55,532 nt of DNA. Source: an uncultured Gammaproteobacteria bacterium (GTDB taxonomy: Bacteria > Patescibacteriota > Microgenomatia > UBA8517 > UBA10165). Where the stretch lies: positions 1 through 55,532 of the forward strand of contig CAYIUF010000002.1 in NCBI GenBank assembly GCA_964366515.1. Reading direction: 5' to 3'. The notes below the pieces were generated by a model that did no database searches, had not been told where the DNA came from, and saw only the letters and a list, made by a program, of their open reading frames with translations. Of this stretch, positions 28,328-30,279 are shown in pieces. How positions within the stretch are numbered: the stretch's first letter is position 1; every line of letters starts with the position of its first letter. The translations under genes and the position numbers were made by a program.

Positions 28328-28539
28328 TCCGTCTCCTTAAGTTGTGTGTGTGCTTTTTTAGAAAACGAACGATTCGCTTCCCTCTCGGAAAATATAAATG
28401 TATTAGCGCAATTTATTGCGCGCAGACTAAAGTCTGCTAATACGCTTCTACTCTTTGAGAGTGTGCCGGGCGGGGAGAGTGAACAAGTGAACAAGTCACA
28501 AGTCAAATTCACAAATCCCTTCCCGGACTTTGGAGGAGA
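28328..28539 (-). promoter_or_regulatory. Structured leader module, copy A
   Basis: Reverse strand reads TTGACT(28506-28501)-17-TTCACT(28483-28478). 8-mer direct repeats at 28479-28514. Outer stem CCTCTC(28381-28386)/TTTGAGAG(28454-28461) encloses GTATTA/TAATAC plus hairpins 28406-28421 and 28422-28437. CGAA-CGA-TTCG palindrome within 28361-28380. Confidence 0.5.
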
Positions 28540-28644
28540 TTAGCCAGCGGCCGCGTATCTTCCTAAGGCGTAGAACAGCCACGCTGTTGCTAGCACACAG
28601 GAAGTCATGAAAAATGCGACAATGGCAACCTTTAATCGACTCAT
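28540..28644 (-). CDS. Unannotated 34-aa hydrophobic peptide (MSRLKVAIVAFFMTSCVLATAWLFYALGRYAAAG)
   Basis: Below the ORF-track size cutoff. AAAGGA lies 7 nt before the ATG at 28644, 13 nt after the upstream stop. One predicted TM helix. Resembles the peptide at 29168..29263 (M-x2-LKV start). Confidence 0.5.
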   Translation of the reverse strand: MSRLKVAIVAFFMTSCVLATAWLFYALGRYAAAG

Positions 28645-28656
28645 CTTTGGTTCCTT

Positions 28657-29007
28657 TCAGGCCTGTGCTTGGTACAAAGGCAAAGCTGCCCATGTGCGGA
28701 CTTGCACCATTCGTCGCTCTTCTTCTTCAGCTACCCTTGCCTCCATGGCATCCTTGGCCTTGAAGTATTCGCAGGTTGGGCAGGTGCAGTTTTCTTCGCC
28801 CCAACAGTCAATGGTCGAATTGTACTCGGGGTGCCTGTCCTCGTAGGACATCATCCAGTCATGGGCGTCAAACATTGATTGGGCTGAGAACCGTTTCTGT
28901 GCCAACTGGCACAGGGGACATAAGTCCAGTTCGAGTACTCAGGTGAAGGTGTGCTCGGCAGGGAACCTGCGCGTGCACTGACTGCACTGAACGGTTTTGG
29001 GCTCCAT
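28657..29007 (-). pseudogene. Cys-rich zinc-ribbon ORF (116 codons) interrupted by one in-frame TGA at 28941-28939
   Basis: AAGGAGG lies 5 nt before the ATG at 29007: MEPKTVQCSQCTRRFPAEHTFT-TGA-VLELDLCPLCQLAQKRF...CWGEENCTCPTC... The TGA splits a CxxC-x19-CxxC ribbon. The TTG start at 28905 in the ORF track has no SD. Confidence 0.5.
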
Positions 29008-29167
29008 CTTCTCCTCCTTGGTTTTTGATGTGCAAATTTGAAAACGACGATTCGTTTTCCTCTCAAAACCTGCAATTTTTGTAGATTTTGAGAGAGGCCG
29101 GGTAGAGATTGTCGTTGTGATGTTATCACATTGATTTTCTCCACCCGGCGGTTCATCATGCAGGACC
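29008..29167 (-). promoter_or_regulatory. Structured leader module, copy B
   Basis: 29022-29074 are nearly identical to 30108-30160. Palindrome GAAAACGACGATTCGTTTTC at 29040-29059. Stem CCTCTCAAAA(29059-29068)/TTTTGAGAGAGG(29086-29097). Outer CCGGGTAGAGA..TCTCCACCCGG encloses GTGAT-GTT-ATCAC. Confidence 0.5.
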
Positions 29168-29263
29168 CTAGATCAATCTTGCGATGAGCACACAGAGTAT
29201 GCCCACTGGAATGGCGATTGAAAGAAGGGAACAGGCGAACGAAACCTTTAAAAGTGCGTTCAT
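29168..29263 (-). CDS. Unannotated 31-aa hydrophobic peptide (MNALLKVSFACSLLSIAIPVGILCVLIARLI)
   Basis: GGAAGGAGG lies 5 nt before the ATG at 29263. The ATG overlaps the upstream TGA (ATGA). One TM helix. Confidence 0.55.
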   Translation of the reverse strand: MNALLKVSFACSLLSIAIPVGILCVLIARLI

Positions 29264-30090
29264 GACTGCCTCCTTCCGAGTACCTCTACAGGATCGGGCC
29301 AGTCGGACGTCAAGTATGCCGTCAGTTGATCTTGACGTTCGGTCCATTCCCGGCACTCAGGGCAGTTTTGAGACGATAAGATCGGTGCGTCGAGCTTTCG
29401 GCCCGCGTCGATCTCGCTCATCTGCTTGCCGCCTCCGAGTTTGCGAACTTCTTTGAGAGTCATCTCCGATACGTGCCCGCAGGGACAGAACTGCACGACC
29501 TCGAGGTCGCTTGGGGTACGAGGTCTTTCGGTTTGGGTCGATTTCTCGACTTTGCCTCCGAGTTTGAAAACCTCGTAGCCGTCTTTGATTTGCCTAAAGG
29601 CGACGGCCTTCTGACTCTCGTCGGTGATGGTCACGACACAGCCGTTGAACTCCTGAGCAAACCTTGCCTCGGAATGGCTGAGCCTGCCAACCGCAAACGC
29701 ATGTAGGAGTGCAACCGGCGCCTGGGCGTGGCATGGAAAGAGGTTTATATAGACCTCCTCCTGCACACGTTCGACTGGATCCACGTCTGGGGTCAGAAGT
29801 TTCTGCATAACGACAGCGTAAGCCGTCGTCACAGAAGCCATAGCCGCGTTGACTGCGTAAGGCAAAATCGCCTCAGGCTTCATACGTTTCTCTAGGGCTT
29901 CATTCTTCGCCGCCACGTAGGCTCTTATCACCTCCGGGCGATGGTCGAATACAGAAACGACCCCGATCCTGTTCCTGCCCAGGAGGTGGTACTGCAAGCA
30001 GTCTCCGCCCGGCATGAGATAGAACGAATGGGGATATAAGGCGCGCAAGCTGACAGTTGCGTCAGCCTCGACGAGCTTAATTTTTTGCAT
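29260..30090 (-). CDS. Unknown 276-aa protein with C-terminal Cys4 zinc ribbon
   Basis: GGAGGA lies 6 nt before the ATG at 30090 (MQKIKLVEAD...). FCPCGH...NCPECREW forms the ribbon. Confidence 0.65.
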   Translation of the reverse strand: MQKIKLVEADATVSLRALYPHSFYLMPGGDCLQYHLLGRNRIGVVSVFDHRPEVIRAYVAAKNEALEKRMKPEAILPYAVNAAMASVTTAYAVVMQKLLTPDVDPVERVQEEVYINLFPCHAQAPVALLHAFAVGRLSHSEARFAQEFNGCVVTITDESQKAVAFRQIKDGYEVFKLGGKVEKSTQTERPRTPSDLEVVQFCPCGHVSEMTLKEVRKLGGGKQMSEIDAGRKLDAPILSSQNCPECREWTERQDQLTAYLTSDWPDPVEVLGRRQS

Positions 30091-30279
30091 TTCCAATCCT
30101 CCGTTTGTTTTTGATGTGCAAACTTGAAAACGACGATTCGTTTTCCTCTCAAAACCTACAAATGTTTACGAGTCCACCTTAAAGGTGGAGGGCTAAATAG
30201 GCTTTGAGAGAGCCGGGTAGAGAAAGTGAACGAGTGAACAAGTCACCAGTCAAATTCACAATCCATCCCGGCGAGCCGT
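30091..30279 (-). promoter_or_regulatory. Structured leader module, copy C
   Basis: Reverse strand reads TTGACT(30253-30248)-17-TTCACT(30230-30225). 8-mer repeats at 30226-30261. Stem 30145-30154/30203-30212 encloses hairpin CCACCTT-A-AAGGTGG (30174-30188). Palindrome at 30126-30145. Confidence 0.5.

Follow-up and report, generated by a model that had tools for sequence, protein, structure and literature searches.

A conserved intercistronic three-hairpin module from orphan-gene islets of groundwater Patescibacteria: a candidate family of regulatory RNAs

The DNA analysed here, hereafter the window, is a stretch of 55 532 nt (GenBank assembly GCA_964366515.1, contig CAYIUF010000002.1, positions 1–55 532 of the forward strand) from an uncultured bacterium placed by its GTDB lineage in the Patescibacteriota. 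The host part of the window resembles a Patescibacteria chromosome, with mraZ, rsmH, ftsL, a penicillin-binding protein gene, murC, murB, glyS and recO, and has a GC content of ~40%. Between positions 27500 and 30800 lies a foreign-looking segment of ~52% GC, designated islet-2, whose coding cargo (27552–30696) consists of seven open reading frames (ORFs), all on the minus strand, with Shine-Dalgarno (SD) sequences and ATGA/TTGA overlaps. Read 5' to 3' on that strand, these encode a 138-aa protein (30280–30696, the first islet-2 gene), a 276-aa protein (P_276, 29260–30090), a hydrophobic peptide of 31 aa (29168–29263), a CxxC protein (28657–29007), a hydrophobic peptide of 34 aa (28540–28644), a 100-aa protein (P_100, 28025–28327) and, as the last ORF, a 158-aa protein (27552–28028). 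Three intergenic spaces in islet-2 are occupied by related sequence blocks of ~160–210 nt, here termed modules A, B and C. The module belongs to a conserved, strongly structured intercistronic family that is absent from Rfam and confined to GC-rich orphan-gene islets of groundwater Patescibacteria, and it is most likely a cis-acting RNA element that also marks the joints between gene cassettes.

The initial annotation of this locus, made from the sequence alone, described three minus-strand copies with a common order, and the sequence bears this out: each copy comprises three hairpins (H1, H2 and H3), the motif GCACA, an A-rich tract, an SD sequence and a start codon. Module C (30091–30279) lies between the genes for the 138-aa and 276-aa proteins and contains H1 at 30271–30213, H2 at 30210–30146, H3 at 30145–30126, GCACA at 30119–30115, the SD sequence GGAGG at 30102–30098 and the ATG at 30090–30088. 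Module B (29008–29167), directly downstream of the gene for the 31-aa peptide and followed by the CxxC gene, has its H1 at 29148–29098, H2 at 29094–29060, H3 at 29059–29040, GCACA at 29033–29029, SD sequence at 29019–29013 and ATG at 29007–29005. Module A (28328–28539), between the genes for the 34-aa peptide and the 100-aa protein, has its H1 at 28526–28466, H2 at 28461–28382, H3 at 28381–28361, GCACA at 28353–28349, SD sequence at 28338–28333 and ATG at 28327–28325.

H1 begins 10–60 nt past the upstream stop codon and is closed at its base by CCGGG..CCCGG. Its apex in A and C pairs GUGAA/GUGAC with GUUCAC/GUUCAC. These arms correspond to the sequences first described as 8-nt direct repeats, which are better read as the two sides of the H1 apex; the GUGA...UCAC apex is retained in B. 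A single-stranded linker of 2–5 nt separates H1 from H2. H2 has the base CUCUCAAAG/UUUUGAGAG and a variable interior; its conserved stem had been recognized from the outset and holds, except that the 3' arm of A reads UUCCGAGAG, giving two A.C mismatches. The segment between CTCTCAAA and TTTGAGAG measures 19 nt in B, 49 nt in C and 63 nt in A, replacing earlier values of 17, 48 and ~67 nt for the enclosed loop. B has the shortest form of H2, with a 12-bp stem, whereas the interior of A holds a two-hairpin insert, GCAGAC..GUCUGC and GCGCAAU..AUUGCGC, closed by GUAUUAG/CUAAUAC. In C the hairpin of the insert is centred on T on the minus strand, not on A. H2 and H3 abut; H3 has the form GAAAACGA-loop-UCGUUUUC and is followed by an unpaired (A/U)3-GCACA, the A-rich tract, the SD sequence and the start codon. 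A repeat finder gave 92% identity between B and C over 63 nt and 86% between A and C over 56 nt, and the reported difference of two out of 53 nt between B (29022–29074) and C (30108–30160) is exact. Within the window, exact TTTGCACAT, GAAAACGA-N4-TCGTTTTC and TTGTTCACT are confined to islet-2.

Rfam 15 returned no match that reached its gathering score anywhere in the window; with E allowed up to 10, the region 27300–30950 gave just six chance-level matches of 12–23 bits against gathering scores of 36–112. Relatives were found by pattern scans. A degenerate H3 pattern run against a genome collection returned 30 matches, of which 29 were chance and one was a true relative on locus L011, a Patescibacteria metagenome-assembled genome from Hainich well H51. 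A longer pattern run against a metagenome collection recovered L038 (the same contig as L011), L039 and L040, the last two from Hainich well H43, from which the window's own population likewise derives. In all, three further copies were identified (L011/L038, L039 and L040), on Patescibacteria-type contigs of the same aquifer. Each foreign copy sits between two same-strand ORFs in a GC-rich (48–60%) islet of a low-GC contig, and all six copies, which represent four unrelated contexts, lie between same-strand ORFs and lead at their 3' side into an SD sequence and start codon. Islet proteins of different genomes show no relationship to one another, and none has a Pfam domain.

A covariance model (R1) of the kind the initial annotation had called for was built from the six copies and scored 69–100 bits on the modules (C, 99.6 bits with the hit at 30210–30112; A, 84.7; B, 69.3). 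The next-best match outside the modules, in the window and these loci, reached 16 bits. Matches on the reverse strand over the same modules reached up to 31 bits because H2 is palindromic. R1 found no more copies in 13 further loci obtained through homologues of P_100 and of the C-terminal domain of P_276, and none outside islets in 86 kb and 88 kb of related loci or in the ~52 kb of host DNA in the window. In viral contigs, the module pattern gave four chance matches and the islet promoter pattern (see below) none, and BLAST of the modules against phage and plasmid collections gave no match. Two phage leaders with GAGAGGAAAACGA..CGTTTTC before the SD sequence lack H2 and were judged unrelated.

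Folding of modules A, B and C gave three consecutive hairpins in each case, with energies of −70.6, −60.5 and −66.3 kcal/mol and z scores of −5.3, −8.2 and −5.1 against dinucleotide shuffles (0 of 200 shuffles were as stable). All six known copies fold as H1-H2-H3, with z between −4.7 and −8.6. The sense strand gave the more stable fold in five of the six copies, the energies summing to −366 kcal/mol for the sense and −325 kcal/mol for the antisense strand. H1 forms a hairpin in six of six copies at a sequence identity between genomes of merely 43–65%, near the random level. The H2 stem is perfect over 12–17 bp in B, C and L039. As MAFFT misplaced the H2 5' arm of A and B in an alignment of the six copies, hand and subgroup alignments were used for the analysis of substitutions. 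In the hand alignment, two-sided changes occur at nine pairs; the tool counted three compensatory pairs out of 30 in C/L011/L039 and one out of 26 in A/L040. Within the H2 inserts, three pairs of the inner hairpin are fully compensated among C, L011 and L039, and the A hairpin GCAGAC/GUCUGC is GCAGAU/AUCUGC in L040. Positions 9–12 of the H2 base are substituted with pairing retained. In C/L011/L039, 97.8% of cells pair, as against 29–58% when the 3' partners are slid by 1–3 columns.

In H3, position 5 is G.U in A, G-C in L040 and A-U in the other four copies, and position 2 is either A-U or G.U, the 3' arm remaining constant while the 5' arm goes from A to G. Across copies, the H3 loop has 3–6 nt and the H2 insert 19–63 nt. 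Variation in this loop and this insert, together with A-to-G changes on one side only, speaks for a single-stranded fold of the coding strand rather than a palindromic operator in double-stranded DNA. The first reading of the locus had proposed a conserved structured element rather than drift, either a functional RNA or a protein-recognised DNA structure. The relatives in other genomes and the pairing-preserving changes uphold the first part; for H2 and H3 the RNA option is now favoured and the DNA structure disfavoured, as arm spacing varies and the changes are asymmetric, being tolerated as G.U only. The combination of a conserved stem with variable insertions, also noted initially, holds across genomes, the two-hairpin insert of A recurring in L040 and the single-hairpin insert of C in L011 and L039. 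Both homologues (L011/L038, L039, L040) and compensatory changes thus exist, the joint absence of which had been named beforehand as counting against a functional element. A hammerhead-like reading of UGAGAG..GAAAC was rejected; the core did not fit and Rfam was silent.

The modules had been taken for leaders of separate operons, with a promoter-like TTGACT-17-TTCACT pair. Separate operons with promoters of their own were not supported. The pair is present in A and C only, being absent from B and the three foreign copies; it lacks the −11 A, has no usable −10 and fails the sigma-70 consensus scan, which detected no promoter inside the modules. The sole consensus promoter of islet-2 lies at 30740–30768 (minus strand) and reads TTGACA-17-TACAAT with an upstream TG (extended −10; 11 of 12 matches). 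It is homologous to the islet promoters of L011/L038 and L040 (TTGACW..GGTTTTGTGGTAYRAT). At the other end, a GC-rich long-loop hairpin (27536–27502, GCCCCGC..GCGGGGC, followed by ATTTCC) is probably the transcript end of islet-2; it fails the consensus terminator scan, whose rules exclude islet-end hairpins with loops of more than 8 nt. The same scan found no terminator-like site on the minus strand within the modules. We also considered the modules themselves as intrinsic terminators and rejected this, since the GC-rich hairpin with a direct U tract is wanting: CUCUC comes after H1, UAAAA after H3, and H2 runs straight into H3. With one consensus promoter and one terminator-like end hairpin, the modules are most simply intercistronic parts of one transcript, and islet-2 would be transcribed as a single mRNA.

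The end of islet-2 is of a type that recurs in six other islets. Each islet ends in a GC-rich hairpin with a long loop (20–35 nt) a few bases past the last stop codon, followed by (A/T)TTTC, as at 27502–27545, 32255–32305 and 20325–20385 in the window, 6980–7015 in L011, 4865–4915 in L040 and 1198–1260 in L044. This long-loop hairpin may be a distinctive type of terminator, of which H1 looks like a version without the tail.

In the minimum-free-energy structures, the SD sequence of C, L011 and L039 is free of pairing; that of A and B pairs in part with the outermost 5' nucleotides of the segment folded. The sequence 5' of it is shared by genes with and without hairpins. The first islet-2 gene has a short hairpin-free leader (30697–30739, minus strand) with a fourth TTTGCACAT (30719–30711) directly 5' of the SD sequence, and the gene of islet-3, another islet of the window, has TTCGCACA in the same place. 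GCACA occurs just 5' of the SD sequence in five islet genes, two of them without hairpins. Among all SD-preceded ORFs in the window, it lies within 50 nt of the start codon in islet genes only and in no genuine host gene, at a chance expectation of ~0.04 per leader. At promoter-proximal islet genes the GCACA-SD leader stands alone; at internal cistrons H2-H3 comes before it.

The modules have a mosaic make-up. Between A and C the identity of H1 is 85%, whereas H2-H3 of A is 81% identical to that of L040 and just 62% identical to that of C. Parts of the module also occur at promoters: the GCAGAU..AUCUGC hairpin is found at the 5' end of the L011 islet transcript, just after the promoter, and GCGCAAU..AUUGCGC beside a promoter (−10 box) in a second L040 islet. 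Promoter, hairpins and modules, the regulatory part of the DNA, are thus shared across genomes in which all cargo proteins are unrelated. Partial modules were seen at two islet ends. In L039 (400–480, minus strand), H1 and CTCTCAAAAA stand at the islet 3' end, and homology to L040 runs through H1 and ends right after CTCTCAAA. In L040 (4790–4900, minus strand), the islet end has the hairpin, a diverged two-hairpin insert and CCGAGAGG, with neither H3 nor a gene. Either could be a scar left at the H2 arm by recombination or deletion.

Intercistronic processing and stability hairpins are known from the RNase III sites of phage T7, from the Bacillus cggR-gapA RNase Y site with its 5' stabilising stem-loop and from the puf hairpins of Rhodobacter. 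Like these, the module places stable hairpins between same-strand cistrons of one transcription unit, one of them right after the upstream stop codon and the others 5' in the downstream leader, with the ribosome-binding site unpaired in most folds. Unlike them, it shows no sequence or Rfam relationship, has a fixed set of three hairpins with invariant stem bases and a GCACA tail, and is common to genomes with unrelated flanking genes; its cleavage is putative. In view of the conservation across genomes, the hairpin architecture, the pairing-preserving substitutions, the intercistronic position, the free SD sequence and the mosaicism, we give about an even chance to the module being a new family of sense-strand cis-acting RNA structures that punctuate the polycistronic transcript of orphan-gene islets in groundwater Patescibacteria. 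The family itself is new within a known general kind, and the punctuation function is proposed.

A mechanism of cleavage and stabilisation, perhaps with a protein partner, is inferred as follows. H1 would be the 3'-end hairpin of the upstream cistron, like the islet-end hairpins but without the T-rich tail, and H2, H3, (A/U)3-GCACA, the A-rich tract, the SD sequence and the start codon would form the 5' untranslated region of the downstream cistron. The primary transcript might be cut in or near the linker between H1 and H2, or just be partitioned there into independent folding domains. H1 could then shield the upstream piece from 3' exonucleases, and H2 and H3 the downstream piece from 5'-end-dependent decay, with the start region kept unpaired so that each foreign cistron would be translated regardless of its neighbours. 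The module may act by endonucleolytic processing with end protection, by structural insulation or by both. At the DNA level, this conserved sequence is also read as the joint at which exchange of H2-H3-leader-gene-hairpin cassettes has taken place.

Several points weigh against punctuation. In a shuffle control with three sequences, 33–63 of 500 shuffles reached the observed values; for compensatory pairs this was 63 of 500, which is not significant. The near-invariant basal stems of H2 and H3 say nothing for or against pairing, and an invariant stem sequence could equally reflect sequence-specific protein recognition or recent common descent. Six copies are known, three of them from one locus. 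In module B the antisense fold is equally good, and in L040 an extra 70 nt separate H3 from the start codon. Lastly, the partial modules at islet ends and the mosaic joints suggest that selection may act on a role in DNA.

A primary function in DNA, with RNA folding secondary, is a rather unlikely alternative, in which the modules would be the recombination joints of a cassette system, orphan genes being shuffled among islets by homologous or site-specific exchange at the CTCTCAAAG..H3 block. Besides the partial modules at the L039 and L040 islet ends and the mosaicism, it can draw on regulatory DNA that is conserved across genomes next to unrelated cargo, and on a cargo linked to a phage-like ~53% GC contig of the same sample. 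A precedent is the promoter-early stem-loop (PeSL), a mobile regulatory cassette of T4-type phages that mediates shuffling (PMC2839356, PMC4122927) and has the order stop codon, promoter, stem-loop, SD sequence and start codon upstream of orphan ORFs (ORFans; PMC2839356). Like PeSLs, the modules are repeated and composite, run from an upstream stop codon to a downstream SD sequence and start codon and lie upstream of ORFans in plastic regions (PMC2839356, PMC4122927); the stem-loop contains G-T pairs, and the mosaic relationships suggest that cassettes may be exchanged at the modules, much as PeSLs mediate shuffling in T4-type phages. The arrangement around the PeSL stem-loop (stop codon 5', SD sequence and start codon 3', upstream of ORFans in plastic regions) is found at the modules. 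Unlike PeSLs, which are defined by a strong sigma-70 consensus promoter and have one stem-loop acting as a terminator, the modules have no consensus promoter and carry three hairpins without a U tract. They reside in a bacterial chromosome rather than a phage, and whereas mini-circles and exchange are known for PeSLs, exchange at the module is suggested by sequence comparison.

The attachment sites of integrons (attC), including those in clusters of attC sites lacking integrases (CALIN), offer a second, looser comparison. As at attC/CALIN arrays, a structured element stands between promoterless, mostly orphan, same-strand cassettes, and as in attC its stem base is conserved, its centre variable and one strand favoured. 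The module differs in including the downstream translation start region. A regular-expression scan of the six modules on both strands for attC core sites R'' (RYYYAAC) and R' (GTTRRRY), 45–135 nt apart, found none, and in place of the single imperfect hairpin that characterizes attC, with its extrahelical bases and unpaired central spacer, there are three hairpins, with a perfect H2 in B, C and L039. No integrase or other recombinase was seen beside any islet, the window having been incompletely scanned for recombinases. Same-population assemblies likewise speak against recombination joints: three others are 99.98–100% identical to the window over their full length, without presence/absence variants. 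The asymmetric changes of the G.U type point, moreover, to selection on the fold of one strand.

A further-reaching version, to which we assign a slightly lower and clearly small probability, is that the modules are the joints of an undescribed platform for gene capture and expression in Patescibacteria, with cassettes from a ~53% GC phage-like pool swapped at the CTCTCAAAG block. Islets would then consist of a common promoter, hairpin blocks and end hairpins, and promoterless cassettes of H2-H3-GCACA-SD-gene-hairpin; they would function like integrons or PeSL shuffling with neither attC nor a known integrase, and the joint would double as an RNA punctuation signal.

In another metagenome, an unrelated array of orphan genes (L050) contains a different repeated block between its genes, one without relation to the module. 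Its sequence is GTTCTAAC.TCTTCCA.T.C.GGGAGC, at 2115–2270, 3011–3362, 5889–6075, 6510–6817 and 7663–7790, preceded in two copies by the hairpin AGAACUCUCUAAGGAAUA.UCCAAGGAGAGUUCU. On this evidence, the separation of orphan cassettes by repeated spacers may be a wider pattern, and the L050 array counts in favour of DNA joints. As to the same-population assemblies, L042 ends inside module C (~30129), and L041 ends in the 276-aa gene (~29342), ~175 nt upstream of module B; the L042 end at least looks like an assembly break at repeated sequence. Such repeat-induced breaks call for caution when arrays of this kind are sought in short-read metagenomes.

Control of transcription elongation is a weaker alternative to punctuation, and we consider it improbable. 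The module would act on RNA polymerase, possibly with an islet- or host-encoded protein, either as an attenuator, with H1 as a leaky U-less terminator, or as a processive antitermination RNA like lambda nut, HK022 put or the Bacillus EAR element. EAR and nutR are intercistronic sites within longer operons, a position that the modules share. The resemblance of H1 to islet-end hairpins minus the T tract fits this reading, as does the arginine-rich N-terminal helix MARARRRIQKRRIGEKHR of the first islet-2 gene product, and GCUCUCUCAAAG is loosely like boxA, GCUCUUUAACAA. The boxA-like tract is buried in the H2 stem, however, the arginine-rich protein has no counterpart in other islets, no match to put, EAR or any antitermination family was obtained from Rfam at E up to 10, and the coding strand of the islet offers no terminator-like site further downstream that polymerase would have to pass.

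There is a similarly slim probability that the module has no selected function and is a selfish or neutral repeat of the kind of miniature inverted-repeat transposable elements (MITEs), enterobacterial repetitive intergenic consensus (ERIC) sequences or Correia elements, or the residue of a tandem duplication within a single locus. ERIC-type elements are imperfect palindromes in transcribed intergenic DNA and tolerate internal insertions. ERIC, BOX and Correia elements share these features with the module, are transcribed, fold in mRNA and can alter mRNA stability; the near-identity of B and C over 53 nt is what a recent duplication or gene conversion would leave. Such elements occur in many dispersed copies and in either orientation, some with terminal inverted repeats, whereas the module is confined to islets and absent from the host DNA of the window and of the other loci. 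It has no terminal inverted repeats or target duplications, its ends being CCGGG.. and ..GCACA-SD; its orientation and register to the downstream start codon are always the same; and compensatory changes keep the pairing between genomes with unrelated flanking genes.

Very improbable, finally, is an array of internal promoters (TTGACT-17-TTCACT) and operators in which GTGA..TCAC, GAAAACGA-N4-TCGTTTTC and GCGCAAT-N2-ATTGCGC bind dimeric regulators: several sub-elements are perfect palindromes, and GCGCAAT..ATTGCGC and GCAGAT..ATCTGC recur near the L040 and L011 promoters as described, but the promoter-like pair is missing from B, L011, L039 and L040 and fails the consensus scan, the H3 half-sites are spaced by 3–6 nt with one arm changing without the other, the H2 arms lie 19–63 nt apart, and no DNA-binding protein is common to the islets.

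The genomes of Patescibacteria are tiny, and hardly any of their gene regulation has been characterised. In different species, orphan genes with no relation to one another share one promoter type, hairpin blocks and the three-hairpin spacer, as would be expected of a reusable expression signal. Such a signal would give a first look at how these bacteria express newly acquired genes, and the module is a candidate regulatory RNA family. Should it be a cassette joint, it would reveal a new way in which episymbiotic bacteria exchange genes with the mobile pool around them, and would provide a natural insulator part carrying foreign cistrons.

The islet cargo itself offers few clues to function. 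The islet-2 proteins had no match in Pfam and weak matches only in PHROG (E 0.005–0.03), and Pfam and PHROG scans of 17 islet proteins, from islet-2 and other islets, gave nothing usable. The 138-aa protein has a predicted structure (predicted local distance difference test score 65) of an N-terminal helix and a beta-sandwich, with no significant match in PDB. A full-length search with the 276-aa protein recovered only itself; its relatives are confined to the C-terminal 70 aa, which represent a widespread small-protein family. Residues 185–276 of P_276 (29263–29538, minus strand) form a domain, VQFCPCGH..Q..KLDAPI..CxxC, that defines a family of 60–130-aa proteins without a Pfam model. The family comprised 48 proteins (cluster representatives) at E up to 0.001, with members in phage-like ~53% GC contigs of the same aquifer sample (L052, L053). 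A paralogue of P_100 is encoded in islet-3, and the gene for a homologue of 64% identity makes up an islet by itself, which has its own promoter and terminator and lacks a module.

The start of the gene for the 31-aa peptide overlaps the preceding stop codon as ATGA. The hydrophobic peptides encoded upstream of modules A and B prompted a type I toxin reading, which was rejected as the peptides have no counterpart at other module copies and no antisense promoter was found. The CxxC gene is interrupted by an in-frame TGA (28940–28942, minus strand) that splits MEPKTVQCSQC..FT*VLELDLCPLC... The stretch with this TGA is spanned by L041, which is 99.98% identical to the window; the gene may have become a pseudogene, the TGA may be read through, or the stretch may encode a 22-aa peptide and an 82-aa ORF with a TTG start.

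Two more GC-rich islets occur in the window, each with its own TG-extended −10 promoter and end hairpin. Islet-1 (18100–20350, plus strand) is an orphan islet that encodes several small membrane proteins and has no module. Islet-3 (32200–32760, minus strand) holds a single gene, the paralogue of P_100. No tRNA or tmRNA was found, and a tRNA-like repeat at 50367/51440 proved to stem from two paralogous genes whose start region is duplicated. The host DNA contains a 39-nt repeat in three copies (2533–2571, 3114–3152 and 17188–17226) of 77–87% identity, with the palindrome TATACACCTATACATATAAGTGTATA.

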